IMG/VR virus record: IMGVR_UViG_3300022074_000050
Coordinates: 1-55,048 of that record
Length of the DNA stretch: 55,048 nt
Source: a virus
Taxonomy: Duplodnaviria > Caudoviricetes
Direction: 5' to 3' (one strand)
The notes under the pieces are model-generated. The model did no database searches and was not told the origin of the DNA. It saw nothing but the letters and a program-made list of their open reading frames with translations. Positions within the stretch are counted from its first letter, which is position 1; each line of letters starts with the position of its first letter. Position numbers and translations under genes: made by a program. Shown piece by piece: positions 14,760 through 54,465 of this stretch.

Positions 14760-14910
14760 ATTACCTATATCTAAAATAAAATTTTTTATAAAAAAATTAA
14801 CAGAAACGTCTAATAGAGTAATAGAAGTAATAGATAAGAGTCTAAACTACTGTTTTACATAAGAAACTGAGAAACAGTAAAAGTAATAGAATATATTATA
14901 TCTATTACAG
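14760..14910 (+). repeat. AT-rich element A with (G)TAATAGA repeats; inverted homologue of 54320-54465
   Basis: 14804-14838 matches the reverse complement of 54389-54423 at 32/35 nt; further unit at 14880-14890 and inverted TCTATTAC at 14901-14908. Confidence 0.85.
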
Positions 14911-14990
14911 GCTTCCTACGAATTCAGAAATTCATTTCTTTATTATTCTATTTCTATATACTTACTTATAGAACTTAGAAAGGAACAGCT

Positions 14991-16436
14991 TTGAAGTACG
15001 AATTCAAAACGCAACCGTTTGCGCATCAAAAGACGGCGTTAACCCGTTCATGGAACAAGCCAGAATACGGCTTCTTTATGGAAATGGGAACAGGTAAATC
15101 GAAAGTCCTTATAGATACGATCGGTATTTTATACGGGAAAGGCGCGATCAACGCCGCCGTTATCATTGCGCCAAAAGGCGTATATAAGAATTGGTCGACA
15201 AAAGAGATACCTGACCATATGCCAGACTATATCGACCGGCATGTCGCAGTATGGTCGCCTGCGCCTCGTAAACAGGAAAAGGCAGATCTAATAAAACTAT
15301 TCGATGTAGGCGAAGATAAACTCAAAATCTTCGTTATCAACGTCGAAGCGTTTAGTACAGCTAAGGGTGTCAAGTTTACTGAGAACTTTATCCTCGGTCA
15401 TCAAGTGCTATTCGCGGTTGACGAATCTACGACGATTAAAAACCCGAAAGCCTCACGAACCAAGGCTATTACGAAACTAGCAAAGAATACTAAGTTCCGT
15501 AGGATCCTAACCGGCTCACCAATAACCCAATCGCCGCTAGACTTGTATAGTCAAACTGAGGTACTCGGAACAAGCCTACTTGGGTACAGCTCGTTCTACT
15601 CTTTCCAAAACCACTTCGGAGAGGTCGTAAATCGCTATTTCGGGGGCCGTACCGTTAAACAGGTAGTAGGGTATAGGAACCTAGACGAACTAACGTCTAA
15701 GCTAGATACGTTCTCTTATAGGGTACTTAAAAACGACTGCCTCGACCTACCGGAAAAGTTGTATATCCGTAGAGAAGTAACCCTGACCGCGCAACAAAAG
15801 AAACTGTACACTGAACTAAAAGAACTAGCGATAACAGAACTTGAAAACCAAGAGATGGTAAGTGTTACGAATGTACTCACTCAGCTGCTCAGGTTACACC
15901 AGATTATATGCGGTCATGTAAAAAGCGATGACGGCGTAGAAACACCTATAGATAGCAACCGTATCGACGAACTTATTGAAGTTATCGGGGAGATGCAAGG
16001 TAAGGTGATTATCTGGGCAAACTACCGCCAAAATATCTTAGAGATCGTTGAAACACTACAAGGTCTATTCGGATCGGATTCGGTAGCTGCCTATTTCGGA
16101 GATACAAGTACCGATGAACGTGAACGGGTTATTAAAGATTTCCAGAACCCCGATTCACCGCTCAGGTTTTTCGTAGGTAATACGCAAACAGGTGGGTATG
16201 GTATCACTCTTACCGAAGCACAAAACGTCATCTATTACTCGAATAATTTCGACTTAGAAAAACGATTGCAATCAGAAGATAGAGCACACCGTATTGGCCA
16301 AAAGAACAACGTAACTTACGTTGACCTTGTAGCCAAAGATACGGTAGACGAAAAGATTGTAACAGCGTTGCGTAACAAACTTGACCTCGCCCAAGAAGTC
16401 TTAGGCGACGAAAAGTGGGAAAACTGGTTAAGCTAA
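14991..16436 (+). CDS. SNF2-family (SF2) helicase/ATPase
   Basis: MEMGTGKS, VDES, LTGSP, QSEDRAHRIGQ; TTG start after TAGAAAGGA; the only plus-strand gene. Confidence 0.93.
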   Translation: MKYEFKTQPFAHQKTALTRSWNKPEYGFFMEMGTGKSKVLIDTIGILYGKGAINAAVIIAPKGVYKNWSTKEIPDHMPDYIDRHVAVWSPAPRKQEKADLIKLFDVGEDKLKIFVINVEAFSTAKGVKFTENFILGHQVLFAVDESTTIKNPKASRTKAITKLAKNTKFRRILTGSPITQSPLDLYSQTEVLGTSLLGYSSFYSFQNHFGEVVNRYFGGRTVKQVVGYRNLDELTSKLDTFSYRVLKNDCLDLPEKLYIRREVTLTAQQKKLYTELKELAITELENQEMVSVTNVLTQLLRLHQIICGHVKSDDGVETPIDSNRIDELIEVIGEMQGKVIIWANYRQNILEIVETLQGLFGSDSVAAYFGDTSTDERERVIKDFQNPDSPLRFFVGNTQTGGYGITLTEAQNVIYYSNNFDLEKRLQSEDRAHRIGQKNNVTYVDLVAKDTVDEKIVTALRNKLDLAQEVLGDEKWENWLS

Positions 16437-16829
16437 TAAAGCTCGCAGTTCTGCAGCAGCCGCTTCTACAGCCGCTAACGCTTCCTCAGGTGACGCAGAA
16501 ATATCTAACGCAGATTGCGCGATACCTACTGCAAGATCTTGAGGTTGAACATCTGCCATCGGGTCTTCTTCGGGCATCATCGGTTCGTCGCCCATACCAC
16601 CCATTAGTTCAGCTAGGCGATCTTCTTCTGGAGCAGGAGCGTCAGCCATAGGAGGTGGAGGCATAGGCGCACCACCACCAGCGGGAGGCATCGGCGGCAT
16701 AGGTGCTCCCCTACCGGCGGGAGGTGGAGTTGGGGCACCACCGGCAGGGGGCAAGGGCGCAGCTGACATTTCAGCATCAGCTCTCATTTGATCTAAGCGA
16801 TTCGGCATTTCATTCATAGGGATAGCCAT
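16428..16829 (-). CDS. Pro/Met-rich hypothetical late protein
   Basis: 133 aa, last gene of the late block, converges on the SNF2 gene. Confidence 0.75.
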   Translation of the reverse strand: MAIPMNEMPNRLDQMRADAEMSAAPLPPAGGAPTPPPAGRGAPMPPMPPAGGGAPMPPPPMADAPAPEEDRLAELMGGMGDEPMMPEEDPMADVQPQDLAVGIAQSALDISASPEEALAAVEAAAAELRALLA

Positions 16830-16831
16830 TA

Positions 16832-18367
16832 TTAGTTCCTTGGTACGTTAGGCCGAAAGGCGTTTTGAAACGGTTGTACGTTCGTATCGAAATTAGTGAG
16901 ATCCATTATACCGTTAGATACTTGACCGCCCATGTTCTTTTTATCAGGGTTGTACGACATCCCGCCAGTAAACGGATTGCTATACATACCGCCAGTAAAC
17001 GGTTGATTTCGTTCGTTATATTCTTCAGGAGTAAACGGTTCGTCGTATGCACTGTAGCTAGGAGTAAATGTTTTTAAATATGATGTAAACGGATCTTGAC
17101 CTTGTCCTTCACGCTGCCCTTCAATAAGGCTCGCCATCGGGCTACCTCCTGGAAGGAACGAAGTACCAGAACTAAACTGAGACGTAGACCCTGTTCGTGG
17201 GCCGCTAGGCGCAGATGCTGCAAAATAGTTATTCAGCTCGTCTTTTGTATCAGAGATTTGTTGATTAACTGCGTCAGCTTCGTACTGAGAAGTAACGTCT
17301 TGGTATTTTGTTTCAAGCGCACCTAGTTGATCTGTTAAACCTTGAATAACAGAATCATAATCATTAGTCGTCGCTTCTGCTAATTGTTCAGGAGTAACGT
17401 ACTGACCTTCTTGTGGGAGATATGATTGTAATTGTTCAGGAGTAAGGTAGTTTTGGAACAAACTTTCTAAACCTTGCACCTGTTCTTGTGTTGCATATCC
17501 TGATAAATCGTCAGAAGTAAGATAACCAGACAAATCTATGTTCGGGTCATATTCCCCTAGCTGATTAGAAATTAAATCAGAAACCTGATCTTCGGTAAGT
17601 CTGCCTTCGTTAATTAAGTCTTGAACTTGTTCTTGTGTTAAACCTGCGGCGGCAGCGGTTTCTTGGGCGCTAGGCTCTTCCTCGGACTGGGCAGCAACTT
17701 CGCCTTCGACTAGTGCTAAAATCTGTTCTTCAGTAAGCAACCCTTGAGTATATAACTGAGCTAACTGATCTTCGCTAAGTTGATAGTTTTGAATAATTGC
17801 AAGAACTTGATCTTCGGTAAGCACCCCACCTGTAATAAGATCTTGAATTTCTTCAGCACTTAGTTCGGCGTTAGCTAATCGTCTAGCAAATTCTTCTTCT
17901 GCTGCAGCAACTCTAGCCGCCGCAGCTTCTGCTTCAGCAGCTCTAGCAGCTTCTGCTTCCGCAGCTCGCTCTTCCGCAGCCCTTCTAGCTGCGATTGCAC
18001 GGGCAATATCAGCTTCGTTATAGGTCGGCCCCATACCCTCAGACTGATCGTATCGAGCATAATCGTTACCGTATGCACCCTGCTCAACATTAAAGCCCAT
18101 CGCCTCAGAAGCTGAAGGGCCGTACAGATAATTAAACGCATCTACTTCTTCTGTAGTAGGAGAAGCAGTGTTAGTTACACGTTGCGGAGGGGCTTGACTA
18201 ACTGTATCGGCAACTACTGGGTTGTTTGCCATATATGCGGCAATACGTTCAGGGTCGATATTAATACTAAAATTACCAATATTGCCGCCACCGAACATTT
18301 TAGGAGGTTCGACTTCTTCAGTCGTTGGAAGTTGTGAGAGTGTTTTTGATTTATAAAAAACCGACAT
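16832..18367 (-). CDS. Putative internal virion protein, acidic, with LT(E/P)(D/E)Q repeats
   Basis: About 511 aa; repeated LSAEEI/LTEDQV/LSEDQL/LTEEQI/LTQEQV/LTPEQL units. Confidence 0.7.
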   Translation of the reverse strand: MSVFYKSKTLSQLPTTEEVEPPKMFGGGNIGNFSINIDPERIAAYMANNPVVADTVSQAPPQRVTNTASPTTEEVDAFNYLYGPSASEAMGFNVEQGAYGNDYARYDQSEGMGPTYNEADIARAIAARRAAEERAAEAEAARAAEAEAAAARVAAAEEEFARRLANAELSAEEIQDLITGGVLTEDQVLAIIQNYQLSEDQLAQLYTQGLLTEEQILALVEGEVAAQSEEEPSAQETAAAAGLTQEQVQDLINEGRLTEDQVSDLISNQLGEYDPNIDLSGYLTSDDLSGYATQEQVQGLESLFQNYLTPEQLQSYLPQEGQYVTPEQLAEATTNDYDSVIQGLTDQLGALETKYQDVTSQYEADAVNQQISDTKDELNNYFAASAPSGPRTGSTSQFSSGTSFLPGGSPMASLIEGQREGQGQDPFTSYLKTFTPSYSAYDEPFTPEEYNERNQPFTGGMYSNPFTGGMSYNPDKKNMGGQVSNGIMDLTNFDTNVQPFQNAFRPNVPRN

Positions 18368-21300
18368 CAAAATATCTCCTCAAGCAAACGGTATATTCGT
18401 TCAGGCATTTCTCTTTGCTCTTCTGTTAAACTAGACAGCTCATCTCTAATTCGCTCACGAGCAGTTTGGTCTTCTTCGCTACCTACGTTTGCTGATCGGC
18501 CTTGAGCAATAGCCGCAGTAACCTGATACATCGTAAGGGCTGGTAATTTTAACTGTTCTGCTCTTAAATATGCTTTTAGTTTTTTAGGATCGGAAACAAT
18601 CTGTCCTAAATAGCGTGCTTTAGCTTCGTCTAATTCTTCAGAAAACACGTCTCTAGCTATACCGATACGAGTGGCAGTTAAGTCTAAGGGGCCGAAGATC
18701 GCTCTACGCAATCTATCTATAGTCCCTCGTCCTGCAGGGGTACGACTTCTTATGTCTTCGACATTTTTTGTCGCCTGTTTGCCGGCATACGTTTCTAAAG
18801 GGTTTCCAGCAAACCCTCTCTGTTTATCCACCATTCTAGCTAAGATTCTAAGATCTTTCGCATATCTAAATGCTTCATCAGCCCCGACTATCGGCTCTAA
18901 AAACCTAGCAGCTTCAGCGTCAGTGTTGAACGGGGTGAGGATTAACTCTTCTAATCTCTTAATATCAAAAGAAGATTCAGGCCCAGCTGCGTCTAACATC
19001 CGTGTCCCGCGAGTCGTTCCTCTAAATTTAGTTCCTCGCAACCCTAACACGACATTTTCAGCAAAATACTCTTGTAACGCAGTTCTTAATTCTGGGTAAT
19101 CCTCTGCCATTTTGCCGAGGTTATTTACGAATCGACCCAGTTGAGTTTCTCGGATATTTTTTGCGCCCTGAGAGGACAGTGTAAAATACTGGTCTAACGC
19201 TTGCGTTAACGTGGGAAACCTACCTGTATCGTCAGCTAGTTTTTCAAGCTCTTTATTGATAGCGCGAACATTAGCTTGAGATTTAGTGATAGACTCTCTA
19301 GCGTTAGTTAAAAAGTCCCGATAGTTTTCAAATTTTACAAAATCTTCTGGGAATAATGCACGAAGCTGTTCTTCGTTTTTAGACATGATTGAGTTAAAGC
19401 GGTTACGGGCTGTGCCAACATCGACATTATCTACGTCAATCTCTCGTTGAACAGACTCTAAAACAGTTGATTTAATCGACTGTAATTTTTCTAACCCACC
19501 TTCTTGTCTACTAATAAATTCAACTAATGCTCTAACTTGTCCAGGGTTGGTAGTTCTAATAAATAAACCTATTTCAGATTCGTCTTTTTTAGCGATGTCT
19601 ACTAAAAACCGAGCAGATAGATCTCTTTGTTGGTCGGCAAGTTTCGTAGCAAGAATTTGATATTCACGACCAACTTCGTCGTAAACTCTTTCCATATTCT
19701 CTGGGGCTTTTTTGCCGGTCTGTACCTTATACATTTGACGAAAGTTATCGTCGATTGCATTATCAATGCTATCAATAAGTGCTTGGCCTTTTTCACGAAT
19801 AACTTTATTAGGGTGTCCAGATATCGCTGCGGATAAGTTTTCCCTAGTTAAAATTAGCTCTCGTTGAGTAAAGTCTCGTTGAGGTAAAAACTGTCCCCCC
19901 TCTCGACCCTGCCCTAATAGCATTTGGATACTTATTCCTTCAGTTTCTCGATTCGGCAAAATAGCTCTAATAAACTCTGCCGCTTCAGCTGCGTCTTCAG
20001 AGCCGAATACAATACCTTCTTGTTTATTAGCGTTTAAAAAATCTTCAAGAGCACCTTTTATATATTTAGGAAGTTTGACAGTCGCTTGGCTATCGTTATA
20101 TTGCTCTCTAGATAATATACCGTCTATTTGAGAACGGGTGCCGTCTAGTTCTTCACTGCGCTGAACAATAAGCCTTGATTTTCGATCAGGGAATGCTTGA
20201 CTTTGTGCTGTACTAACTTGTTCTTGAATGTTTTCTGCAGCTTGTTGTCTTCCAGCTCGAGAAGTATCTAACGCAAATGCTTGCCCTAATTGCTGATTAG
20301 CCATATTTTCGGCTAATGCTCGTTCTTCTTCTGAAAGCTCGCTAACTAATTTCTGACTACGAATACCAGTAAAAACATCGTTTAATGTTTCTTTAGTAAT
20401 TCCTAAATCTTCAGCCTCTCTAGGATTGAGACCCGATTTTCTTAAAATATCAGTATAAAACTGTTCTAACAACGAAGAGTTTGACCTATGGAAATCTTCT
20501 AATTTTCCAGCTATGGGCATTTCTAAAGCAATTTCCGACATCAATTCTTCAAACGCTATGATTTGTTCGTTATCAGACATTTGTCCAAGAGTTTGAGCTT
20601 GCTGCCTAATTCTCCTTGCTGCTTCTGTAGAACCTTCTTGGGTAATTCTTATAATTTCTGCAGGAGTTAGTTCGTCAAATTGTTCAGCGAAACCAGTTTC
20701 TTCTTGAACAACTTCAGTAATTCTTCGACGCATTTCGGGAGTCGTTTCCTCAGGAAGCGCGTCTGCATCACCGTTATTAACTCGACGAATTTTATCGCCT
20801 AATACTCTTGCTTCGACCATCATTGTATCAATTATTTCACTAGATACTGGTCGACCAGTCAATTTAGACCACATAGCCCCAAGGCTTCTAAGGAATGCGT
20901 CTCCTCCTGCACCATACATAAGTGCCGCTTTGAATACGGCCCCCGAATCTTCTGCTGCTCTTTCAAAAGTTAGGTCAGGCTGTACGTTGCCGCCTGCTTC
21001 GGTTGCACCTAAAGCAAGTTGTCCAAATCGTATAAGAGTTTCAGTGCCAGCTACTCCGAGTGCTGTAGCTCCAACTTCAACCACTGCCTTACCGAACCTA
21101 GATTCAGGTAATCTGTAAAGAGCTTCGCCTTCATCTATATCGGTAGCTTTTCTTTGCAGTCTTTGCTGGATTCTGTTTTTAGCTACTTTACCAGCTACGT
21201 TTGTAAGAAAACCACCAGCCGCGATTCCCGCGCCTTCTTGCGCTCCAAATTTAGCAAGTTCCCGTAACGCAGGAGAGATGTCGCCTTCTAATGCTTCTTC

Positions 21301-22164: not shown

Positions 22165-22166
22165 AG

Positions 22167-32021: not shown

Positions 32022-32221
32022 ACCGATATATTCACTCGTTGGGTAGGCGCTAATGGTTGCGCTTCTACCTTGTTACCTTCTTTGGTGTACATAGTCGGTA
32101 TGATCGTCTCCACCGCCTCTCGCACAGTCTCGCCTTCAGCGCCTGTCCTTAACCGCTCTTGTTTTTGTACCGCTACCTGCTTCCAACTAACTTGAGCAGT
32201 ATCACTAATGCTTATGTCCAT
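32018..32221 (-). CDS. Hypothetical protein
   Basis: About 67 aa filling the gap and overlapping both neighbours; start uncertain. Confidence 0.6.
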   Translation of the reverse strand: MDISISDTAQVSWKQVAVQKQERLRTGAEGETVREAVETIIPTMYTKEGNKVEAQPLAPTQRVNISV

Positions 32222-32915
32222 CTTGCTCACCCTCGACAGGAAAACAATTTATATTGGCGGCTACTGTTCTTCGCTCGCCTTCCCCCTGAAAAGGGTAAAC
32301 CATATGCTGCATCCAACTCGGAAACATATATAGCCTACCTACCTGCGGCCTAACTACGACATTCTGTGTAGGTTTGAGCCGCTCTCTATCCCATGTGCTC
32401 GATTGTCCATAGTTGAAACACAAACAGCCATCGCTTTCGCCAGAGGCGTTATACAGCCCGTACTCTTGCGACCCCGGTCTTGGCCCTTGCACTATCTGGG
32501 GCGGCACCTTCGTCCATGTCGTACAGCTAATACCCATCACCGTCTTAGTGCCGTGGTCATGGATCGGGTTGTAATCACCCTCGTAGCTATGAACCGACCA
32601 TAGCTCATCCATCTCGACGTTTCTGTTACCGTCCAGCGACTGACCAGATTGGGCCATAAACTGGTTGATATACGTCACGCCCATCTCGCACAAGAACCTA
32701 GAAAACGGTGCCAGCCTTGGATCTTCGTGATCCATTACTAACTGCTCACCCGTCTTGATCTGGCCTACGAGCGTGTGCGCTGCGCTGACCTTATCGTCTT
32801 GTGTAACTAACTCATCGAGGTAGTCGTTACAAGACTCAACAAACTCTGTCGGGATGTCCAACTCCATCAGGAATACTGACGGCAGCGGGTGCATCTGAAA
32901 CTGTATTTCAGCCAT
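32205..32915 (-). CDS. 2OG-Fe(II) oxygenase-like protein (TIGR02466-like)
   Basis: YNPIHDH, FPSWMQHMVYPF, ERRTVAAN. Confidence 0.85.
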   Translation of the reverse strand: MAEIQFQMHPLPSVFLMELDIPTEFVESCNDYLDELVTQDDKVSAAHTLVGQIKTGEQLVMDHEDPRLAPFSRFLCEMGVTYINQFMAQSGQSLDGNRNVEMDELWSVHSYEGDYNPIHDHGTKTVMGISCTTWTKVPPQIVQGPRPGSQEYGLYNASGESDGCLCFNYGQSSTWDRERLKPTQNVVVRPQVGRLYMFPSWMQHMVYPFQGEGERRTVAANINCFPVEGEQDGHKH

Positions 32916-33615: not shown

Positions 33616-36600
33616 TTATCCTTCTAAGGTTTCAATTCTTGCGGTTAATGATTCAATCAAGGCTTGCTGCTCTTGGATTGCTTTGGTTAAAATCGGTATA
33701 AGCGCAGACGGTGCTACACGTTGCTGACCATCGCTGTCTTTTTCCATCCACATATCAAAGCCATCTTTAATTTCTGGATGAGCGTCAATTGTAGATTTAA
33801 CTTCTTGAGCTATAAAGCCGTGGTTGGTTGTATCGTTTATGACACGTTTTTCAGAGCCTTCAACGTAAGCATCCATTGAAGTTGGAAGGTCTTTTTCCTT
33901 TTTCCACTTATAAGTTACAGGACGTAAATCATTAACAAAGGATAGACCTGCTGTTGATGTAGCAACGTCTTCTTTCATGCGAGAGTCAGATGGAGCAGTC
34001 CAAGTAGTTGCGCCTAAAACAAGATTGCTATCAACTGAACCGTTACCAACAGTAAAGTTTCCATTACCTACGCCTGTAGCACTAGCACCCATTACAATTT
34101 GAATATCTGCGCCAACACCAGAAGGCTCACAACCATGACCAATAATTACGCAATCCGTCGCTGTTGTTAGCGTTTCTCCTGCTTCAAATCCAATTATTGT
34201 ATTTCTTGAACCTGTATTAATTGAATCTCCTGCTAAACCGCCAATCAGTGTATTCTCTACGCCTGTGGTGACTGACTTACCTGCCTCATAGCCAACTGCA
34301 ATATTGTAATTAGTTGTTGCAGTTGTAAAATTTTGAGTAGCTAAAGCTTCTTTACCAATAGCAACGGCATTGCTTCCAAGAGTGTCAGCAGTAAGAGCGC
34401 CTTTGCCAATCGCTATATTTGAATTACCTTCCGTAAGGTGATCGCCCGCAAGAGCGCCGATAAGAACATGCTGAACTCCCGTGGTGATTGCCGCACCTGC
34501 TACATAGCCTACTGCTGTGTTAAAAGAATCTGTAGCAGTAGTAAAGTTTTGAACATTTAACGCACCGTGACCTATAGCTGTTGCTTTACTACCTAAAGTA
34601 TCTGCACTTAAAGCTGCGTAACCCATCGCCACGTTGAAGTCGGCGTCAGTCAAAGCGTCACCTACTAGACCACCTATGAGGACGTTCTGAATTCCCGTGG
34701 TGACTGACGCTCCTGCTTGCATACCAACGGCTACATTGTAAGAAGTAGTCGCAGTTGTGAAGTTTTGATTTTGTAACGCGCTTTTGCCGATAGCGACATT
34801 TTGAGCGCCTTGAGTATCTGTCGTTAATGCCTCAACGCCAATTGCCACGTTATTATAGCCGGTAGTTAGAGCGTCACCAGCAAGTCCCCCGATGAGGGTG
34901 TTCTGGATTCCCGTGGTGACTGCGTTACCTGCGTAGTAACCAACTGCCACATTGTGAGTTTGTGTAGCCGTAGTGAAGTTTTGGGCTGCTAAAGCGGCTC
35001 GACCAACGGCAACAGATCGACTGCCAAGAACGTCTGAGCCTAATGCACTCACACCGACAGCTACATTATCATCAGCTTCAGTGCTTGCATCTAAAGCAAC
35101 CTCGCCGATGGCTACATTATTTGACCCGGTGGTAAGTGCTCCCAAAGAATTTGTACCAACGCCTGTATTAAAAGCGCCTGTCGTAATTGCATCACCTGAA
35201 AGCCCACCGATTAGAGTGTTTGCAGTTCCCGTAGTGACGTTGCCCCCCGCACTATGACCAACAGCAGTATTGTAGACATCAGTAGCTGTGGTGAAGTTTT
35301 GTTGACTAAGCGCAAAACTACCTAACGCAACACTTCTAGTTCCTAAAGTATCGGAGGTTAATGCCGCGTATCCTAAAGCTACACTATAGTCTGAGTCTGT
35401 TAGAGCATCCCCAGCTAGACCCCCAATTAACGTATTTTGGGTTCCCGTGGTGACTGAGCCTCCCGCAAACATTCCAACAGCGGTGTTATAAACCTCAGTG
35501 GCGGTGGTAAAGTTTTGTGCGCTAAGTGCTAGGTAGCCTACAGCCGTACTTCTGCTTCCTAGCGTATCTGAACTTAAAGACCCGTAACCAATAGATGTAT
35601 TAAAATCAGCATCAGTCAAAGCATCACCAGCAAGACCACCGATGAGAGTGTTCTGTGTTCCCGTGGTGATTGCGGTTCCTGCACTTGCGCCTACAGCCAC
35701 GTTGTAAGCATTTGCTCCTGCGTTCAAATTTAATAAGGCGGCATTACCAATAGCAACATTAAGTCCATGTGCGTCTTCTGTCTGTAAAGCCGCATAACCA
35801 ATGGCAACATTACCGTCACCCGTAGTTAAAGCCGTACCCGCTTCATCGCCCACAACCACATTATAGTTGCCGCCAGAGGTAATGCTGTCGCCAGCGTTAA
35901 CTCCTAATCTTACGTTGGATGTCCCTGCTGTCGGAGTGGATGGAGCGCCATCTGCCGCTAATTCAAAAACGACTGTATCGCTCGTTGCAAACTTCATAGG
36001 GATGGCGTCTTGTGTCGCTAAAAAAGCGGCGGCAGTAGTCAAGCCCATTTCAAAGGTATTGTTGCTAGTCGTTTCTTTTATAAGAACTATTGGGTGCGTA
36101 GCATCAAAAACATTTATACCGTTCGCATCTCCAGAAAAGTTACCGTTGTCAAACGTAGAACCGCCAAACATGACATTTCCAGTGCTCCCTTCTAAGAAAA
36201 AAGCGTGAGTGTTTGCGTTTGACTCAATGCGAAAATCAACATCTGCACTTGCTTCGTTAAATACAGCGCCACCGTCTTGAGTCAAAGCACCATCAATGTC
36301 CACGACATCAAGATTAGTGGTGCCATCTACATCCAAGTCGCCTGATACAAAGAACGACGGGACAGATAGATCGGTAAACGCATCAACCATCGCAGCGCCT
36401 GATCCAGCACCGTCGCTATAGATAGCTTTGGTCTGACCGTTGGCGATGGTGACCGTAGCACCACTGCCTTGCTTGATGATGATGCTCTGCGATCCGCTCG
36501 TTGCGTTCTCAATGAACCAGAGCTTGCTGACCGTGTTTGGCCCTATAGTGATGGTGCAAGTGCTATCAAGAGTGCCAGTATATTTGAGGAAGAGACTGCG

Positions 36601-36789
36601 GCCCGGATCAGTAGACCCGTCAGCAATAGTAGTAGTATGAGTATCAGCATTAGTCGTAATAGCTTCCGTCCCAAAGGAAAAAGCCTCCGCAATCAACTCA
36701 AGGTTCGTGTTCGTACTAGTTCCCCAAGTACCTGATTCATCGCCGGTAGATATCTCTTTTAGGCGTAGATCGTTAACGTAAGTTGCCAT
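33616..36789 (-). CDS. Tail fibre with tandem NxAxG beta-repeats and C-terminal S74-type intramolecular chaperone
   Basis: GDESGTWG..TN.NL anchor; six QNFTTAT-containing repeats; SDSRMKED, LRPVTYKW, GFIAQEV, terminal coiled coil. Confidence 0.9.
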   Translation of the reverse strand: MATYVNDLRLKEISTGDESGTWGTSTNTNLELIAEAFSFGTEAITTNADTHTTTIADGSTDPGRSLFLKYTGTLDSTCTITIGPNTVSKLWFIENATSGSQSIIIKQGSGATVTIANGQTKAIYSDGAGSGAAMVDAFTDLSVPSFFVSGDLDVDGTTNLDVVDIDGALTQDGGAVFNEASADVDFRIESNANTHAFFLEGSTGNVMFGGSTFDNGNFSGDANGINVFDATHPIVLIKETTSNNTFEMGLTTAAAFLATQDAIPMKFATSDTVVFELAADGAPSTPTAGTSNVRLGVNAGDSITSGGNYNVVVGDEAGTALTTGDGNVAIGYAALQTEDAHGLNVAIGNAALLNLNAGANAYNVAVGASAGTAITTGTQNTLIGGLAGDALTDADFNTSIGYGSLSSDTLGSRSTAVGYLALSAQNFTTATEVYNTAVGMFAGGSVTTGTQNTLIGGLAGDALTDSDYSVALGYAALTSDTLGTRSVALGSFALSQQNFTTATDVYNTAVGHSAGGNVTTGTANTLIGGLSGDAITTGAFNTGVGTNSLGALTTGSNNVAIGEVALDASTEADDNVAVGVSALGSDVLGSRSVAVGRAALAAQNFTTATQTHNVAVGYYAGNAVTTGIQNTLIGGLAGDALTTGYNNVAIGVEALTTDTQGAQNVAIGKSALQNQNFTTATTSYNVAVGMQAGASVTTGIQNVLIGGLVGDALTDADFNVAMGYAALSADTLGSKATAIGHGALNVQNFTTATDSFNTAVGYVAGAAITTGVQHVLIGALAGDHLTEGNSNIAIGKGALTADTLGSNAVAIGKEALATQNFTTATTNYNIAVGYEAGKSVTTGVENTLIGGLAGDSINTGSRNTIIGFEAGETLTTATDCVIIGHGCEPSGVGADIQIVMGASATGVGNGNFTVGNGSVDSNLVLGATTWTAPSDSRMKEDVATSTAGLSFVNDLRPVTYKWKKEKDLPTSMDAYVEGSEKRVINDTTNHGFIAQEVKSTIDAHPEIKDGFDMWMEKDSDGQQRVAPSALIPILTKAIQEQQALIESLTARIETLEG

Positions 36790-36791
36790 TT

Positions 36792-37556
36792 TTAAGCTAC
36801 CTCATCCCAATTAGGGGTTTGACTGTCTGAAACATCAGCCCACCCAGGAGTCTGACTGTCCGTTATATTATTCCAATTTGGAGTTTGAGCCTCATTTACT
36901 AGACCCCAAACATTAAAATACCCTATCTCCGCTGTTCCAGATACTCCAGTTACCCCAATAACTGCATCCGCAACAACTACATTACCAACCGCTCCAGTTG
37001 CTGCAACACCTGTTGGAACGATCGTTTGGCCCAGACCAACAGTGACTGTGCCAACCGCTGAAGTACCTGCCACACCTGTAACAGAAAATACTGCATCTCC
37101 TGTTGCAGTGACTGTGCCAACCGCTGAAGTACCTGCCACACCTGTAACAGCAACATTCGCATCTGAGCTAATTGTGGTTGTTCCGACAGCCGAAGTACCC
37201 GCGACTCCAGTGACTGAAGCATTCGCATCTGCGCTGACCGTAACTGAGCCAACCGCTCCAGTACCAGTAATGCCAGTAACACTAACATTCGCATCTGACG
37301 ATACAGTAAGCGTTCCGATAGCTCCCGTTCCTGCCACTCCCGTAACAGAAACGGTAATGCCCGTTCCTTCAACAATCGTAACGGAGCCAATCGACCCCGT
37401 TCCTGCCACACCTGTGACAGCAGCATTCGCATCCGCAGAAACTGTGACGGAACCGACCGCTCCAGTTGCTGCAACACCTGTAACCTCAACAGGGTCTGCT
37501 TGACCCCATGGGCCTTCGCCCCAAGTGCCTCTGCCCCATCCATTAAGGTCTGCCAC
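36792..37556 (-). CDS. Gly/Val/Thr/Ala-repeat virion (fibre-like) protein
   Basis: About 22-aa repeats VTGVAGTxAVGxVT; exact ~45-bp internal duplication near 37040 and 37107. Confidence 0.8.
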   Translation of the reverse strand: MADLNGWGRGTWGEGPWGQADPVEVTGVAATGAVGSVTVSADANAAVTGVAGTGSIGSVTIVEGTGITVSVTGVAGTGAIGTLTVSSDANVSVTGITGTGAVGSVTVSADANASVTGVAGTSAVGTTTISSDANVAVTGVAGTSAVGTVTATGDAVFSVTGVAGTSAVGTVTVGLGQTIVPTGVAATGAVGNVVVADAVIGVTGVSGTAEIGYFNVWGLVNEAQTPNWNNITDSQTPGWADVSDSQTPNWDEVA

Positions 37557-44874: not shown

Positions 44875-44875
44875 T

Positions 44876-45553
44876 CTAATCTCCTTCGGCGTACAAGTTA
44901 TTAAACGTAATGTTCGGATCCATGTAGCTATCGTCAATTTCCGCGCTATGCACGTGTTGACTAGGATAAAAGTCCGGCGCTCCTGAACCTGTCTCCCATA
45001 GCGCAGGATTGGTCGCTCTTACACGATTGTTAGGCAGTGCTACAATATTGCCTGTCCATTTTCCTGCATCAGTCAGCTGAATAACATGACTCTGCTTATG
45101 CTGCGCAGGATCATCAGCTATATCATTTCCTGTATAATCTACAGTAAACAAATACTTCCCTGTATGGAACTCGCTATCTATCTTACATAGCCAAGGGCTA
45201 GAAGATACACGATCCATAACAATAACCTCATGGTCTCGGGAACTACAGTCCCAAGGCTGCGCTAAATGAGTTGCCATTGATTCAGGCATTTCATCAATCA
45301 TCGCGTCAGCAACTAAAGCAGTAATAGGCATCCTAGCCCACATTGCTCCCCCATGAAGATTTTCAGAATCTTCATCTTCATTCAATTCGTATCCTGTAAA
45401 TACGACTTGAAAGGATAAACATCTATCTGGGATAGTGTTTACCGCAATAGCTATTGCATGTAAATACTCTCCGTGATACTGTAGATGATTATGTGTGTAT
45501 TCTTTTCTAACCCAACAATTGAAATGTGGAATATTACTTATTAAGTGTGACAC
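44876..45553 (-). CDS. Hypothetical protein downstream of portal
   Basis: 225 aa; GAMWARMPI, QPWDC, HKQSHV, ALPNNR. Confidence 0.8.
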   Translation of the reverse strand: MSHLISNIPHFNCWVRKEYTHNHLQYHGEYLHAIAIAVNTIPDRCLSFQVVFTGYELNEDEDSENLHGGAMWARMPITALVADAMIDEMPESMATHLAQPWDCSSRDHEVIVMDRVSSSPWLCKIDSEFHTGKYLFTVDYTGNDIADDPAQHKQSHVIQLTDAGKWTGNIVALPNNRVRATNPALWETGSGAPDFYPSQHVHSAEIDDSYMDPNITFNNLYAEGD

Positions 45554-47926: not shown

Positions 47927-47963
47927 GGAACGCTACCCTACTCTAGTTTTTTACAACGGTAAA

Positions 47964-49481: not shown

Positions 49482-50419
49482 CTGCGTCTAAGCTGGTTTA
49501 GCCGTTCCTCAGTTATCGGGCCACCTTCAGCAAATCGTTTTTGGAAATCTAATCTTACTTGCGGATCACCACGGTTCGTCGAAGCACCTAACCGTAATGA
49601 GGAATCTTCGTCTCCGAATATCTTAGACATCGAATACTCGTCGCCTTCTTTTTGAATATCTACAGGCAAATCTAAACGATCCATTAATTCACTAAACAGA
49701 ACGTCTTCTCTACTCCTTTCTCCAAAATCTTCAGGCAACCCAAGACTTGATAACAAATCTCTTTTTGTGGATCCCCTTAATCTTTCAAGTTCTTGTAGAG
49801 GATCTAACCCAGCTCTCCTTTGTAGCTCATCGTCAGTGATCCCTCCGTTAGAAAACTTTTTTGCGGTAACAGCGCCCCCGTTAGCCATCGTTTGTATTTG
49901 TTGTTGCGTAGCTGGCACCATTCCTGCGTCGGGCATCGTTTCCATTTGATCCGCAAGCTGCATACCAACCTGCTGGATCTGTGGATCGGGGTCTTGCATC
50001 ATCCCCATAATTTGCGGAACACCAAAATAATATACATCTCCAGGTGTCCCTACCGGCCCCCCGTCGGCCATACCTTGCGGCAACAAACCTTCTAACCCGC
50101 CCTGCTGCTCTAACATCATCATCAGTTCTTCTTCAGAAACATCAGCTGGTAACGCACCTTGTTCTGGTACTCCAGGAATCGGGGGCTGACCGCCTTCGTA
50201 ATCCATCGCTTTTAACGCGTCTTCTAATCCAGAAACATCGCTACCCTGTATTTCTTCAGGGACAATTTCTTTAACCATCGCGATATTCGGGGCAGACCCT
50301 TCAATTAACGCACGAGTTTGAGCGTTTTCTTCAGCACGTTTTTGGGCTTTGCGTGATTGGCTTGCGCCGTATGCGGCTGTGCCCGTTGCGATAACTACTG
50401 AGGTGACTACAAATGCCAT
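49478..50419 (-). CDS. Putative virion protein with pilot-like hydrophobic N-terminus and repeated xxxGGx(V/I) motifs
   Basis: MAFVVTSVVIATGTAAYGASQSRKAQK; MADGGPV, MANGGAV, FSNGGI, FAEGGPI. Confidence 0.7.
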   Translation of the reverse strand: MAFVVTSVVIATGTAAYGASQSRKAQKRAEENAQTRALIEGSAPNIAMVKEIVPEEIQGSDVSGLEDALKAMDYEGGQPPIPGVPEQGALPADVSEEELMMMLEQQGGLEGLLPQGMADGGPVGTPGDVYYFGVPQIMGMMQDPDPQIQQVGMQLADQMETMPDAGMVPATQQQIQTMANGGAVTAKKFSNGGITDDELQRRAGLDPLQELERLRGSTKRDLLSSLGLPEDFGERSREDVLFSELMDRLDLPVDIQKEGDEYSMSKIFGDEDSSLRLGASTNRGDPQVRLDFQKRFAEGGPITEERLNQLRRS

Positions 50420-50850
50420 TATTCAATATCCTTGAAATTATCTACAACAAACATCCGCTCTAATTCTGGTATATCTCGGATATCGTCAGGATTAGGATGG
50501 ACAGTAATAATCGTAGTATCTTCTAAAAAGTATAAAGCCCGTTTCGTATGCGCAGGCGTATTCATAATCGCGAAATCTTTATAAACGTCTATCCGTTCTT
50601 CGTCTTGCATCGTAGAAATAACGCGACAATGACCCGCTGCTAATATCGTCATATGCTCGTGTAAATGAACTTGGCTTACGACTACCGAACCTTTGACCCC
50701 GTAATACGCTCGCATATAGATTCCAGGAGCAAAGTGATGCGTATTAATATACGGCGACGGCGCGTTGGGACGGGTTCTTGAAATGGCAGAAACAACGTCT
50801 TGTATCCCTGCAAGTTTAGATTTTTGAATATCTAATATCGCCGTACTCAT
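50419..50850 (-). CDS. Cupin-fold protein
   Basis: HHFAPGIYMR, VHLHEH, G.C.V, TP..TKRA....EDT..ITVH. Confidence 0.75.
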   Translation of the reverse strand: MSTAILDIQKSKLAGIQDVVSAISRTRPNAPSPYINTHHFAPGIYMRAYYGVKGSVVVSQVHLHEHMTILAAGHCRVISTMQDEERIDVYKDFAIMNTPAHTKRALYFLEDTTIITVHPNPDDIRDIPELERMFVVDNFKDIE

Positions 50851-51668
50851 TTATACGATTTACCGTAATAACCCTTCGCGTAACTTAAACCACCGCCGTT
50901 AGCTTTCTTAGCAGTAGTCGCGGCCTGTCGGAAATTTTCTTTCGTCGGCGCACCCTTAGATCCCGCCTTACGCATCGTTTCGCCAGAACCCGCAGCTATC
51001 CGCTTACGCTTCGCGGCGATATTTGCATACAACCCTGGACGCCCACCACCTGCCATCTGGTCAGGGTCGCTAAAAATATCTTTCCGTAACTTCTGGATTC
51101 CAGATTCACCTTGGCGGTTCATAAAATCTTGGTATTCGCGTAATGCCGTTTCGTATTCTTCCGACATTTCGCCTTCTTCTAAACGACGATTAAATTCACC
51201 ACGTGGGCCAACTTTCGGATCTTCATCCATCATACGTTGGGTCATACGGCGGTCAACTTTCATCGCTTTTTCGCCTGCTGGCCCTTCGAAAAAACGTGTG
51301 GCTTTTTCGTCCATTAATTCGTCGCGCATTTTTAAAAACCTTTCTAAACCGTCTTTCGCCATCCCTACTTTTTTTCCAGGGCCAGCCATTCCCATCGCCA
51401 TCGCTAATTCATCACCTAATAACGATTCTAATCCTGGAGTATTACTTAACGTAACCGCAAGTTCGTTCGGCTCACCTATTTCCTCGGTTTGCCGCATCGT
51501 CAACGTATCTTTGTTGGTGTTTTGTAACATCGCCATAATTTCGGGGAGGTTATCCATAATATCCTCGCCGACTAAAAAATCACCGGCTCCTCGTAATAAC
51601 GACATTAAACCTCCACGACCGCGACCTAATTCTTCATCGTAAACCGCTTGCATATCGTCCATTACCAT
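50847..51668 (-). CDS. Hypothetical protein with a basic C-terminal module
   Basis: 273 aa; ends GLYANIAAKRKRIAAGSGETMRKAGSKGAPT...YAKGYYGK. Confidence 0.75.
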   Translation of the reverse strand: MVMDDMQAVYDEELGRGRGGLMSLLRGAGDFLVGEDIMDNLPEIMAMLQNTNKDTLTMRQTEEIGEPNELAVTLSNTPGLESLLGDELAMAMGMAGPGKKVGMAKDGLERFLKMRDELMDEKATRFFEGPAGEKAMKVDRRMTQRMMDEDPKVGPRGEFNRRLEEGEMSEEYETALREYQDFMNRQGESGIQKLRKDIFSDPDQMAGGGRPGLYANIAAKRKRIAAGSGETMRKAGSKGAPTKENFRQAATTAKKANGGGLSYAKGYYGKSYK

Positions 51669-51958
51669 TTCACCTTATCGGCCCAATAAGCTGCGCTCAT
51701 CTTGCCCTTTTTGATATTCTTTCCGTGACGTGCCTTAAAACTCTTACGCCGCGCCTTTTGCTTCGCCGACTCACCCGCTTTAGGCTTACCCGCAGTTTTT
51801 ACACCCTGCTGCCCAAATCGAATCGTCTTAATTTTATCGCCTTCCTTAGCAACTACAACATGCGATTTTTTAGGATGGGACGGGGTACGCTTCGGCTTGT
51901 TATAACCGCTAACGCCTGCGCGTTCTAATCGCGAATCTTTTTTCTTTTTCTCAGGCAC
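51662..51958 (-). CDS. Small basic protein (DUF6321-like)
   Basis: KTIRFGQQG, ARRKSFKARH, SAAYWA; start uncertain (GTG 51958 or TTG 51979). Confidence 0.75.
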   Translation of the reverse strand: MPEKKKKDSRLERAGVSGYNKPKRTPSHPKKSHVVVAKEGDKIKTIRFGQQGVKTAGKPKAGESAKQKARRKSFKARHGKNIKKGKMSAAYWADKVKW

Positions 51959-52463
51959 CGAATGGGTTCCCCTGCGCAACAGGAAATGCTTGTAGCCTCA
52001 TAGAATCTGGCCCTTGGGTTCTTAATCTAGATATCGCAGGCTGAGGACGTAACTGCTGAAATAACCCGCCTAAACCACTTTGAGCTTGTAACTGGTTTAA
52101 CATACCAGAACCAGCACCTAAATGTTCAGATAACCGCTGCTGCTGTTGCTGCATCTGCTGGATATTACCCTGTAATTGCTCAAGCGTTTGTTCCGTTGTC
52201 TGCTCTTGCGGCATTGGCATCTGATTACCTAATGCCGCTAGTCTTTCTGACGATCTTCTGTCTATAGGTTCCGCAGAACCTAACGCCGGTAACGGCATCT
52301 GCATATCTACAACACGATCTTCTGTCGCTTGTTGTGGCATCTCACTAGGCTGCGGAGCGTATTGCGCCCTCATCTGATCACGCATTCGTAACATCATCAT
52401 CATCTGAGGATCCATAAACATCCCGCGACCCATCGTCGAACCATATGGAGACTGACCGTACAT
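51951..52463 (-). CDS. Gln/Met-rich hypothetical protein, first gene of the late block
   Basis: 170 aa, GAGGT RBS. Confidence 0.75.
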   Translation of the reverse strand: MYGQSPYGSTMGRGMFMDPQMMMMLRMRDQMRAQYAPQPSEMPQQATEDRVVDMQMPLPALGSAEPIDRRSSERLAALGNQMPMPQEQTTEQTLEQLQGNIQQMQQQQQRLSEHLGAGSGMLNQLQAQSGLGGLFQQLRPQPAISRLRTQGPDSMRLQAFPVAQGNPFGA

Positions 52464-52667
52464 AAAACAACCTCATCAAAGATAGCCGAATCGTAACCCC
52501 CTAATCACTACTCTCGCTACCCCTAAAAAATTTTCGCGAAAAATTTTGACCCATCGAAAAATATAAATGTGCGAAATTTTTGAATAGGGAACCTAAAGCA
52601 AAAGTATCTCGGAAAAAGAGGCGGGAACTAGGTAGTGGTGGGTGGGCGGGTGCCTTGCGGCAATTTT

Positions 52668-52681
52668 GGGGGTATACCCCC
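52668..52681. other. Perfect 14-bp palindrome GGGGGTATACCCCC
   Basis: Read directly; lies in the non-coding gap between terS and the late block. Confidence 0.85.
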
Positions 52682-52744
52682 TTAGCCTAACCGTTAGCAT
52701 ATGCGGTAGGCCGCGCCCCTTAGCAAAACTGTTAGCTAACAGGC

Positions 52745-52772
52745 AAAAAAAGGGGCGCACACGGCACCCCTT
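52745..52772 (-). terminator. Rho-independent terminator of the 52790..53275 gene
   Basis: GGGGTGC-CGTGT-GCGCCCC followed by a T-run on the minus strand. Confidence 0.82.
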
Positions 52773-52789
52773 AGTAAGTCGGTTAGTGG

Positions 52790-53275
52790 TTAGCTAATAC
52801 GCTTGAACATCGCAAAGCTAAACTCAACACCTTCTTTAACCACATCGCGCATCTTTTGATTGCCGCGAGCCTTGGCCCACTTAGCACCTAACAGCATAGG
52901 TAAGTAGGTTTCTATCACCATGTTATTTTCTGACTTATGAACTAACGACTTAGCTATGATAGCAGCCTCTTTATCATCAATAACAATTTGGTTGTCATTG
53001 TCTAAGCGTAGCAACATTTCCCTAGCCAGTTTGCCACATTGCCTAGTAAGTACGTCAAACAACCTAGACCATCGGGGGTCATCGGCGTTAACTACTTCGT
53101 AGGTGCCTACTAGGTTAGAAGCGCCACCATTAACGTATACCTTGCCAGCAGCTTGTTGCTTGAGCTTTTCCAAAGCCGTAGGCTTAGGTGCTAGGGTTGA
53201 CCCGTTAGCGTCAAGGTTAGCGATAGCTTCGCGGGCGGTCTGTTCGGGGGCTGATTTTGTGTTTGATTTGGTCAT
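52790..53275 (-). CDS. Stand-alone hypothetical protein
   Basis: 161 aa, AAGGT RBS, own terminator, non-coding flanks. Confidence 0.8.
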   Translation of the reverse strand: MTKSNTKSAPEQTAREAIANLDANGSTLAPKPTALEKLKQQAAGKVYVNGGASNLVGTYEVVNADDPRWSRLFDVLTRQCGKLAREMLLRLDNDNQIVIDDKEAAIIAKSLVHKSENNMVIETYLPMLLGAKWAKARGNQKMRDVVKEGVEFSFAMFKRIS

Positions 53276-53370
53276 AATGTTTACCTTTTAAGTTAAGTTA
53301 ATGTCATCAAGTGACAGGCATATAATCAGGCATCTTGTGTATATAGTCAAGCACTAATAATCAGTCGGTC

Positions 53371-53400
53371 ACCTAATCAATTACCTAATCAATTACCTAA
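53371..53400. repeat. Tandem 12-bp repeat ACCTAATCAATT x2.5
   Basis: acctaatcaatt acctaatcaatt acctaa. Confidence 0.9.
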
Positions 53401-53536
53401 CCGTCGCGGCTTAACAAAATGGTTGGAACTTAAAATAACGGTTTGACTATGGGGCGCGCCTAATCCTAACCGTCGGGATCTGTCGCGCCGTCCCTCGGCC
53501 TCCGTCGGTCGCTCCCTCGCTCGCCGTCAATGAATC

Positions 53537-53624
53537 GTGGTGGGTGGGTGGGTGCGCTCGCGCTCCGTCAATCTTTTATAGTCGATCGATCGATCGATCG
53601 ATCAAACGTGGTGGGTGGGTGGGT
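53537..53624. repeat. Two GTGGTGGGTGGGTGGGT copies flanking a (GATC)5 run
   Basis: Copies at 53537-53553 and 53608-53624; tcgatcgatcgatcgatcgatc at 53582-53603; a third near-copy at about 52635-52651. Confidence 0.88.
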
Positions 53625-54196
53625 CAATCGCTCTCTCGCTCAATTAATACAGTCGATCCGTCTGTCGATCCGATCCGATTCGTAATCTGTCCCTCGATCG
53701 TTTGCGGTACGCGCTTCGTGATAAGCTGTCCAAGTCGATCGATCAGCTGATCCTTCGAGAGCATGTCGATCTTCGCGGTCAATACCTCGCGTCGATCGAT
53801 GTAAAGCCCCCCGACCTTCCCTCGGTGTATCTCTGCCGTGATCGCTGCGTTAATCTGCCCCGACTCCCGTGCCTCCTCACGCAAGTCATGGAGCGCGGAG
53901 AGGTGGCCCTCCATGGAAACTCTATCCCTCTCTGCCTCCTTGATTTCCTGGTCTATAAGGTAATTTCGCAAAAGTGGGTTGTGGTTGAGTAAGACGCTGC
54001 CTTGTCGTTTGGCTGCGGCTCGATTCTTCGTATAGCCTGCTTTTACCGCTGCTTCGGTAGCGTTTTGGCCTTTCAAATACTCTCGAGCGAACTTCTTTTG
54101 TTTCGGATTTAGCGGTTGCCATCTCTTACCATCGGCGTCGATGTAGCCCATTCCGTCATCAGCAGGTGTCAGGGGAGTGTACTGTAGTTCTTTCAT
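53624..54196 (-). CDS. terS: Terminase small subunit
   Basis: LNPKQKKFAREYL...NATEAAVKAGY HTH; AAITAE..RGK..GLY. Confidence 0.9.
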   Translation of the reverse strand: MKELQYTPLTPADDGMGYIDADGKRWQPLNPKQKKFAREYLKGQNATEAAVKAGYTKNRAAAKRQGSVLLNHNPLLRNYLIDQEIKEAERDRVSMEGHLSALHDLREEARESGQINAAITAEIHRGKVGGLYIDRREVLTAKIDMLSKDQLIDRLGQLITKRVPQTIEGQITNRIGSTDGSTVLIERESD

Positions 54197-54319
54197 GCAG
54201 TGTTTCCGAGGATCGTAAGCGTGTAGAACTATATCTTAGAAAATAAAATAATTTATAAAAAGTAAAAGTTTTCCTCATGGCCTCTCACCACTATTCACTG
54301 TTCTCGTTTCAATAACCTA

Positions 54320-54465
54320 TACGATTTCTATTACTTTCTCGTCACACTCATCACGGCCCCCAGCTCTCGTATCCATTGGCTTCTTTCACTTTTCTATTAC
54401 TTCTATTACTTTATTAGTCGTTTTAGTTGAAAAAAATAAAAAAAGTTTTTTTTCTAAATAGACAA
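54320..54465 (-). repeat. AT-rich element B with (G)TAATAGA repeats; inverted homologue of 14760-14910
   Basis: Core 54389-54423; extra unit 54327-54337; A/T tracts 54430-54453. Confidence 0.85.

Follow-up and report, generated by a model that had tools for sequence, protein, structure and literature searches.

Paired heptamer-array modules upstream of the SNF2 and terS genes of an HTVC023P-type phage: candidate shared promoter/operator elements

Two inverted modules upstream of SNF2 and terS

The stretch of DNA analysed here (the window) is the whole of IMG/VR record IMGVR_UViG_3300022074_000050, a linear sequence of 55,048 nucleotides (nt) from a virus of the Caudoviricetes, with a completeness of 91%. 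It carries two inverted copies of a repeat-bearing non-coding element, one preceding the gene of an SNF2-family helicase (module A) and the other preceding terS, the gene of the small terminase (module B), and these two elements are the subject of this work. Every gene of the window is on the − strand except the SNF2 gene, an exception that by itself explains the inverted orientation of the two elements. Read along the − strand, a short gene is followed by a terminator, module B and terS, then by a small gene equipped with a separate promoter and terminator, and then by terL and the genes for portal, capsid, tail, lysis and large internal proteins, down to position 16428. The SNF2 gene, on the + strand, converges on this structural block, and module A occupies the space between SNF2 and a replication and nucleotide block that extends from 14680 down to 63. 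This block encodes proteins similar to gp32, gp33 and gp34 of Pam3, an AEP primase, a UvrD-like helicase and PolA, a thymidine-hypermodification set (thymidylate-synthase-like protein, 5-hmdU kinase, methyltransferase and glycosylase-like protein), a 70-amino-acid (aa) protein with a sigma-r4/Mor-like helix-turn-helix (HTH), a nuclease and a DUF932 protein.

The terL and SNF2 products were 55-58% and 45-55% similar, respectively, to those of the Pelagibacter phages HTVC027P and HTVC023P, phage 023Pt_psg01 and DSL-LC04, which places the window in the HTVC023P-type lineage, for which the highest abundance among known marine viral groups has been reported (bioRxiv 10.1101/2019.12.14.876532). The two elements had originally been placed on a circular map. 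The record itself is linear, but contigs of 11 relatives cross the junction between the end and the start of the window and support circularity, and collinearity with G001, a relative, extends across the ends of the window. Approximately 2.8 kb of small genes without assigned function present in G001 (contig L128, positions 1811-4603) are absent between the last and first bases of the window, a shortfall consistent with the completeness estimate.

The 35-mers that gave rise to the original prediction, AAACGT...ATAAG (14804-14838, +) and AAACGA...AAAAG (54423-54389, −), were confirmed to be identical at 32 of 35 positions, with letters and coordinates correct. The A and T tracts described directly before both elements could be read from the sequence, and the further copy of the repeat, AAAGTAATAGAA, was found again at 14880-14891 (+) and 54337-54326 (−). 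Over a longer stretch (14774-14838 and 54389-54453; 65 nt, 77% identity) this match was the longest among the 77 inverted pairs reported for the window by a repeat finder, and a search of the record against itself placed the element at these two places only. Exact matches to AGTAATAGA numbered seven against 0.83 expected, a count reached in none of 100 shuffled sequences, which excludes chance; six of the seven fell within the two elements, and the remaining one was located inside SNF2 (16231-16239, −). The hexamer TAATAG was not enriched over the genome as a whole (18 and 11 copies on the two strands against 15.6 expected per strand). The two best 300-bp intervals for this hexamer were these two sites, with five and four copies, and intervals elsewhere held two at most.

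Alignment of IMG/VR sequences upstream of SNF2 (50 loci) and terS (72 loci) revealed that the 35-nt match, although real, is the core of a similarity that covers a module of about 270 bp at both sites. Within one genome, the likeness between modules A and B spans from the left array to a GC box and an AT-rich promoter-like stretch. The module starts with a left array of three to five reversed units (nTATTAn) with a 9-bp period, which in some terS-type sequences is shorter by exactly one 9-bp unit, followed by an A/T tract of 25-27 bp and the sequence TT(A/T)ACA..CG. Next come cluster 1, composed of three forward units (CTAATAGAG TAATAGAAG TAATAGA), a weakly conserved spacer, and cluster 2 (TAATAGAAT CTATTAGAA CTATTAG), composed of one forward and two reversed units, the first two of which together form a 15-bp palindrome. 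The module ends with the GC box AGGCCnCGnGCG, AT-rich DNA in which a −10-like hexamer is conserved but a −35 is lacking, and a short leader; the GC box is located around 47-48 bp before the hexamer. Altogether, the heptamer sites of each module, with the core TAATA(G)A and an 8-9-bp period, number about ten, and the two A/T tracts supply the most AT-rich 30-mers found in the genome (Table 1). Column conservation along TATACT, the −10-like hexamer of module A, was 0.9/0.9/0.6/0.9/0.7/0.9, with no −35 present, and B-type sequences have TAAGAT, TAGAAT or TAGATT at this position. In module A, the left array directly adjoins the −35 of a putative leftward promoter of the replication block, which has the same form as the TTAGTGCTTTACT-N17-TAnnnT family of the phage.

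Table 1. Positions of the two modules and of the genes and signals associated with them
Feature	Position	Strand	Evidence
70-aa protein with sigma-70 region 4/Mor-like HTH	3968..4180	−	Pfam Sigma70_r4 9.7e-8, HTH_7; Mor below cutoff
Putative leftward promoter of the replication block: −35 TTTACT (14736-14731), N18, −10 TAAGGT (14712-14707)	14707..14736	−	Columns 0.8-0.9 conserved in 38 non-redundant relatives
Module A, left array: four reversed units, exact 9-bp period (TATT at 14741, 14750, 14759; TATC at 14768)	14741..14773	−	nTATTAC/G in relatives
Module A, A/T tract: 29/30 A/T, ends TTAACA (14797-14802)	14772..14802	+	Conserved
Module A, cluster 1: CTAATAGAG TAATAGAAG TAATAGA, three forward units, 8-9-bp period	14810..14834	+	Columns about 0.9
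Module A, cluster 2: GTAATAGA-N10-TCTATTAC; relatives TAATAGAAT CTATTAGAA CTATTAG	14883..14908	+	Sequence and alignment
Module A, proximal part: GC-box equivalent CAGGCTTCC, AT-rich stretch, putative −10 TATACT (14957-14962), leader, putative ribosome site AAGGA	14908..14990	+	
SNF2-family helicase gene; single-gene unit behind module A	14991..16436	+	PHROG 62 3e-115; Pfam SNF2-rel_dom, Helicase_C
terS, small terminase gene, behind module B; C-rich repeats after it	53624..54196	−	Pfam Terminase_2 9e-15; PHROG 51
Module B, proximal part: GC box GAGAGGCCATGAGG (54286-54273), AT-rich stretch, putative −10-like TAAGAT (54238-54233), leader to 54196	54197..54286	−	
Module B, cluster 2: GTAATAGAAATCGTATAGGTTATTG, degenerate in the window; relatives TAATAGAAT CTATTAGAA CTATTAG	54310..54335	−	Sequence and alignment
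Module B, cluster 1: CTAATAAAG TAATAGAAG TAATAGA	54393..54417	−	Sequence and alignment
Module B, A/T tract: 28/30 A/T, ends TCAACT (relatives TTAACA)	54425..54456	−	Sequence and alignment
Module B, left array: about five reversed units, 9-bp period (CTATTAG ... TCTATTTAG)	54454..54495	−	Sequence and alignment
Intrinsic terminator ending the preceding unit, just upstream of module B	54505..54523	−	Conserved in relatives

Conservation, pairing and spacing in relatives

In an alignment of the window with 40 SNF2 loci (38 non-redundant), the repeat cores, the A/T tract, the −10 hexamer and the ribosome site were conserved at about 0.9, a level resembling that of codon positions 1 and 2 for the repeats. 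The spacers ranged from 0.3 to 0.6, as did the third codon positions of SNF2. This pattern points to purifying selection on the DNA of the modules. A scan of the whole window against Rfam gave no matches, and RNAalifold analysis of 12 terS leaders resulted in a consensus of −1.58 kcal/mol, with no compensatory pairs and no conserved fold; the conservation is therefore placed at the level of DNA.

The search for the pair in relatives, on which the original prediction had been made to depend, was positive: the two copies were present, inverted and 16-20 kb apart in all eight records long enough to contain both. Searches with module A DNA detected the pair in five of five long relatives, at 17-20 kb and with one copy per strand. 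In the most divergent module-bearing group, whose SNF2 is 70-72% identical, it was found in three of three long records at 16.5-19.5 kb; a fourth, partial record of this group contained one copy, and a reversed control pattern gave no matches in the same search. The module was absent from G006, with an SNF2 that is 58% identical, and the 170-bp gap upstream of SNF2 in DSL-LC04 showed neither repeats nor an A/T tract.

A search of 2.9 million IMG/VR contigs with TAATAGAGTAATAGNNNTAATA yielded 71 matches. In 39 of them the sequence preceded a terS homologue (by 209-220 nt) and in 31 an SNF2 homologue (by 179-193 nt), its orientation being that of the downstream gene in 70 of 70; the remaining match, beside a gp32-like gene, was cut by the contig end. 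The distances to the start codon fell into discrete classes, of 179-183 (n=25) or 192-193 nt (n=6) for SNF2 and of 209 (n=11) or 219-220 nt (n=28) for terS. From the third repeat to cluster 2, 54-56 bp were observed in SNF2-type sequences and either 55 bp (n=10) or 66-67 bp (n=46) in those of terS type. The script used for spacing parsed 23 of 43 SNF2-type and 56 of 57 terS-type sequences. Cluster 2 was separated from the GC box by 26-27 bp in 22 of the 23 SNF2-type sequences parsed and by 35 bp in the other one, and in 56 of 57 terS-type sequences the GC box lay at 50 bp from cluster 2, and 85-87 bp separated it from the start. Length classes that differ by one helical turn (about 10-11 bp) are suggestive of a need for the clusters to lie on one face of the DNA helix, a property of looped or wrapped complexes. 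Across the clade, the repeats of the B-type modules were nearly invariant, and terS itself was 84-95% identical.

A candidate operator for two genes and its alternatives

The two modules share one anatomy, are conserved and occur as a pair, and they are exclusively associated with SNF2 and terS. We favour, with moderate confidence, that they are paralogous operator/promoter modules for these two genes, each heading a single-gene unit and bound cooperatively by one protein. Among the functions originally proposed, a shared operator coordinating SNF2 and terS is the option that gained support, both from the fixed orientation and similar distance in 70 of the 71 IMG/VR matches and from the timing of the two genes in HTVC027P. 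In the infection time course of this cultured relative, the SNF2 helicase gp87, terS gp29 and terL gp40 are classified as 'Late', and the primase gp04 and its neighbours gp02, gp03, gp05 and gp28 as 'Middle' (PMC12753301, Tables S2 and S3). The SNF2 protein of HTVC027P is 49.6% identical to that of the window, and its gene, located beside the replication block, is timed with the packaging genes, which fits a control element common to SNF2 and terS. From these observations we infer the binding of a protein to the modules, as well as the direction and the timing of the regulation. The same classification corrects one detail of the original description: the modules do bracket the replication block and point outward, as stated, but the bracketed genes, there called early, are 'Middle' in the HTVC027P transcriptome.

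SNF2 and terS must each have a promoter within the module that precedes them, since module A is the sole DNA upstream of SNF2 and module B the sole DNA between the terminator and terS. The proximal hexamers (TATACT in module A; TAAGAT, TAGAAT or TAGATT in B-type sequences) have the form of a −10 of activator-dependent promoters lacking a −35 and would mark predicted promoters. The heptamers, with about ten copies, a regular period and a conservation near 0.9 against 0.3-0.6 in the spacers, are arranged as an operator array. The combination of about ten heptamers with a GC box and a −10 that has no −35 led us to read the module as an activator- or repressor-gated promoter. Further upstream, a −35-like hexamer close to TTGACA directly follows the A/T tract (TTAACA in module A, TCAACT in module B, and TTAACA or TTTACA in relatives). 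The consensus of UP elements is A/T-rich and is located at −40 to −60. In the mechanism that we propose, one sequence-specific protein would bind the heptamers cooperatively and would wrap or loop about 200 bp, with the A/T tract providing bendability or contacts for the alpha subunit of RNA polymerase. The resulting complex would control access to the weak proximal promoter and thereby bring about joint expression of SNF2 and terS, probably late. On module A, the complex would be located immediately upstream of the putative promoter that reads divergently into the replication block, and it may simultaneously turn that promoter down. Candidate binders would be the 70-aa sigma-r4/Mor-like HTH protein, TerS or a host factor.

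The 70-aa HTH protein and TerS were the only recognisable candidate binders in the Pfam and PHROG scans, the former being the only candidate phage regulator recognised. The recognition helix of this protein, (K/R)QRxxQI(V/I), is retained at 34-40% identity. A large protein search with its sequence returned only three near-identical proteins, and a lenient Pfam scan of 20 small proteins without assigned function detected no further DNA-binding domain above noise. The attempt to tie the HTH protein to the module by distribution failed, as homologues were found in G009 and G010, which carry the module, and also in G006, which does not. None of the DnaA box, CtrA, IHF and sigma-54 motifs fitted the repeats in a comparison made by eye only.

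Several observations weigh against the promoter/operator assignment. At the upstream site, the hexamer found at 16 nt is TAATAG, without the final T that is present in all six of the phage's own TTTACT-N17-TAnnnT promoters, and neither 14300-15300 nor the interior of module B contained a sigma-70 promoter in a consensus scan. The module does not precede the run of main structural genes (from 52463 downward), which indicates a control special to the two genes rather than a general late promoter. The timing evidence comes from HTVC027P, where the module is missing and SNF2 and gp01 are separated by a gap of 49 nt. No heptamer-binding protein was identified in our scans, the spacing classes may come from just two or three indel events, and inverted arrays flanking the most AT-rich tract also fit a replication origin. 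It has to be noted as well that RNA-library contigs gave no usable transcript ends. Contigs of two oligo-dT RNA runs, one run labelled 'RNA?' and one virome were compared with L128, which contains both modules; RNA-library depth on this contig was mostly below 5 throughout, with DNA carry-over possible, and a 414-nt RNA-library contig (X16), covering the 5′ end of terS and the leader to just past cluster 1, settles nothing.

The fit to an origin underlies an alternative that we regard as rather unlikely, although it deserves attention: the modules would be twin replication origins of the SPP1 oriL/oriR kind, in which an initiator binds the arrays, the A/T tract melts, and the AEP primase, the UvrD-like helicase and PolA start synthesis. 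Arrays of one motif do flank, in inverted orientation, the most AT-rich 30-mers of the genome, that is, repeated sites lie beside an element of the unwinding type, and the two copies bracket the replication block at a distance of 16-20 kb. Recombination-type genes, encoding a Hjc/VRR-NUC-like nuclease and the Pam3 gp33/gp34-like proteins, are also present. However, PHROG and Pfam scans of 70 open reading frames (ORFs) recognised no Rep-, O-, gp38- or DnaA-like protein, and relatives with the same replication genes lack the element at the syntenic site, as in the intergenic gaps of DSL-LC04 and HTVC027P mentioned above. Moreover, an origin does not need the fixed orientation and distance to a start codon that both copies show, and the 9-bp unit is unusually short, far below the 17-22 bp of classical iterons. 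The analysis of GC and AT skew suggested with the original prediction was of limited use: cumulative GC skew fell steadily, with no inflection beyond a blip over the SNF2 gene, and this is a weak test because the coding bias towards one strand dominates and masks the replication signal. As a variant, the second copy may arrest forks and thereby set off recombination-dependent replication; fork stalling at oriR has been proposed in SPP1 (PMC6316719; PMC3485210). An origin role could also coexist with a promoter role, as in transcription-activated origins. A more elaborate form of this idea we hold to be unlikely: each module would be a late promoter and a transcription-coupled origin, the inverted arrays would load the replication machinery at the A/T tract, and a fork from one copy would meet the protein-bound other copy head-on, an encounter proposed for SPP1 oriR, flipping circle replication to recombination-driven concatemers and switching on terS and SNF2. 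If true, this dual role would couple the switch in replication mode to the start of packaging in one clade of the HTVC023P-type lineage.

That TerS itself binds the arrays is a reading to which we assign a low probability. Module B would then be a pac region overlapping the terS promoter, and TerS would repress its own gene and control SNF2 through copy A. The location immediately before terS, which holds for module B only, is that of a pac site, and the near-invariance of the B-type repeats alongside a well-conserved terS agrees with it. In SPP1, Gp1 binds pacL and pacR at both sides of the cut site (PMC6316719), and the reference list of that article includes a title on a terminase repressing its own synthesis. 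A pac site is, however, normally unique, whereas two inverted copies were found in every genome examined, and the second copy, inverted before SNF2, would package in the opposite direction. The contigs yielded no readable termini, and a different pac-like candidate is located after terS, where ACCCACCCACCCACCAC repeats and (GATC)5-6 were detected in 47 and 42 of 50 loci, respectively. Strand-specific priming sites for the AEP primase, similar to ssiA/ssiB of RSF1010 and also part of the original prediction, are very improbable. Such a role would account for the inverted copies, for the AEP-type primase gene 1.8 kb from copy A and for the folding of copy A as single-stranded DNA (z −3.9 on both strands). 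Copy B, though, is unfolded (z +0.70 and +0.20), so there is no shared hairpin, and the copies lie 16-20 kb apart in eight of eight relatives and not in one compact origin. What is conserved are heptamer arrays of double-strand type in both orientations, not a stem. Least probable of all is that the copies serve as crossovers that invert the intervening segment of 39 kb or of 16-20 kb, a role that had been raised on the grounds that they are inverted repeats. Their identity is merely 77% over 65 nt, and PHROG and Pfam scans detected no recombinase, the sole resolvase-HTH match being the 70-aa protein without a catalytic domain. In addition, the 11 contigs of relatives that hold both genes share one arrangement, and no opposite-strand joint was found at the modules in contigs of the four runs, contigs being prone to drop rare forms.

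The module represents a concrete, conserved and testable cis-element in an abundant clade without a cultured member, and it points to a trans-factor controlling the initiation of packaging and possibly replication. The heptamer arrays could also serve as a marker of the clade in metagenomes.

Neighbouring sequences and comparison with known systems

Other repeats were observed in the window. Promoter-like repeats of about 45 nt, with the form TTAGTGCTT(T/G)ACT-N17-TAnnnT, start on the − strand at 66, 1286, 3175, 9931, 53357 and 54983, and a weaker copy is located near 14736; 11 matches were counted at up to two mismatches, against 3.3 expected. This family heads units of the replication block and a gene of 161 aa (53275..52790) amid the packaging region, and its members are probably host sigma-70 promoters of early or middle type. 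Just upstream of the copy at 53357, a 12-bp direct repeat (TTAGGTAATTGA) occurs twice, together with one degenerate copy (53367-53402, −). Behind terS, ACCCACCCACCCACCAC is found twice right after the stop codon (53537-53624, −), with (GATC)5-6 between the two copies, and once more about 900 nt further on (52635-52651). Among 50 terS loci of at least 3.6 kb, CCCACCCACC was retained in 47 and (GATC) repeated at least three times in 42. This feature may represent a pac signal, a site of Rho utilisation or, on the other strand, a G-quadruplex.

Adjoining module A are three genes (12962-14680) of new Pfam families that take their names from cyanophage Pam3 (gp32-, gp33- and gp34-like). In DSL-LC04 this trio is found before the primase, and two of its members carry the annotations 'DNA ends protecting protein' and 'ATP-binding protein'. 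The trio may constitute a set for recombination or for the start of replication. The thymidine-hypermodification genes, located at 6336-9870 and 32205-32915, encode a thymidylate-synthase-like protein, a 5-hmdU DNA kinase (PF18723, 1e-42), a SAM methyltransferase, a protein with a Pyr_excise/aGPT-like glycosylase fold and a 2OG-Fe(II) oxygenase. Given this set, the T-rich heptamers would carry modified bases in virion DNA. Finally, a tailspike-like gene of 1057 aa (33616-37556) contains six to seven repeat units of 216 nt, and the gene following it has units of 66 nt; both genes are covered by the repeat-finder families D1-D3.

The module is undescribed in the literature that we searched, which contained no account of promoters, origins or intergenic elements for this lineage. 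The words 'promoter' and 'origin of replication' do not occur in bioRxiv 10.1101/2019.12.14.876532 or in PMC9599517, 'intergenic' does not occur in the latter, and 'promoter' is likewise missing from PMC12753301. The titles and abstracts of the literature on late promoters of pelagiphages revealed no regulation of the HTVC023P type. The module is related to known operator or iteron arrays of phages and plasmids.

In RSF1010, ssiA and ssiB form an inverted pair in a genome that also carries the primase gene. The modules described here differ in that they share no hairpin, lie kilobases apart and accompany a primase of a different family (AEP). A further mechanistic model is the early/late switch region of phi29, a divergent intergenic region with a p4/p6 nucleoprotein complex, in which small phage proteins bind multiple sites and bend the DNA, repressing one promoter and activating the opposite late one. 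Module A is similarly placed between the replication-block promoter and SNF2, but motifs and proteins are different, and module B has no divergent partner.

The origins oriL and oriR of SPP1 combine direct repeats with an AT-rich tract and lie 13 kb apart on the circular map, one near the replication genes and the other in the late region, according to PMC6316719. Two similar non-coding elements are also found here, 16-20 kb apart. SPP1, on the other hand, has the origin-binding protein gp38, with oriL within its gene, and no such protein was recognised in the window; in addition, the modules have a fixed orientation before start codons, and their similarity extends into promoter-proximal DNA. 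The same source describes the pac region of SPP1 as a repeat-bearing stretch of a few hundred bp that overlaps the terS promoter and is bound by TerS on two sides (PMC6316719). The difference in the window is the second, inverted copy before an unrelated gene.

The closest mechanistic model is provided by the operator arrays of the omega/ParB system of pSM19035. In this plasmid, contiguous 7-bp WATCACW repeats, direct and inverted, overlap several promoters, and the small omega protein binds these heptads cooperatively, a single repeat being bound weakly (PMC9499535). The modules depart from this arrangement in their spacing of 9 bp instead of 7 and in their three clusters around an A/T tract instead of one contiguous array. 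Pfam scans found no ribbon-helix-helix gene in the window, which belongs to a phage without a partition ATPase and not to a plasmid. As in the omega system, the modules consist of heptamer cores in both orientations that are arrayed before genes, here SNF2 and terS.

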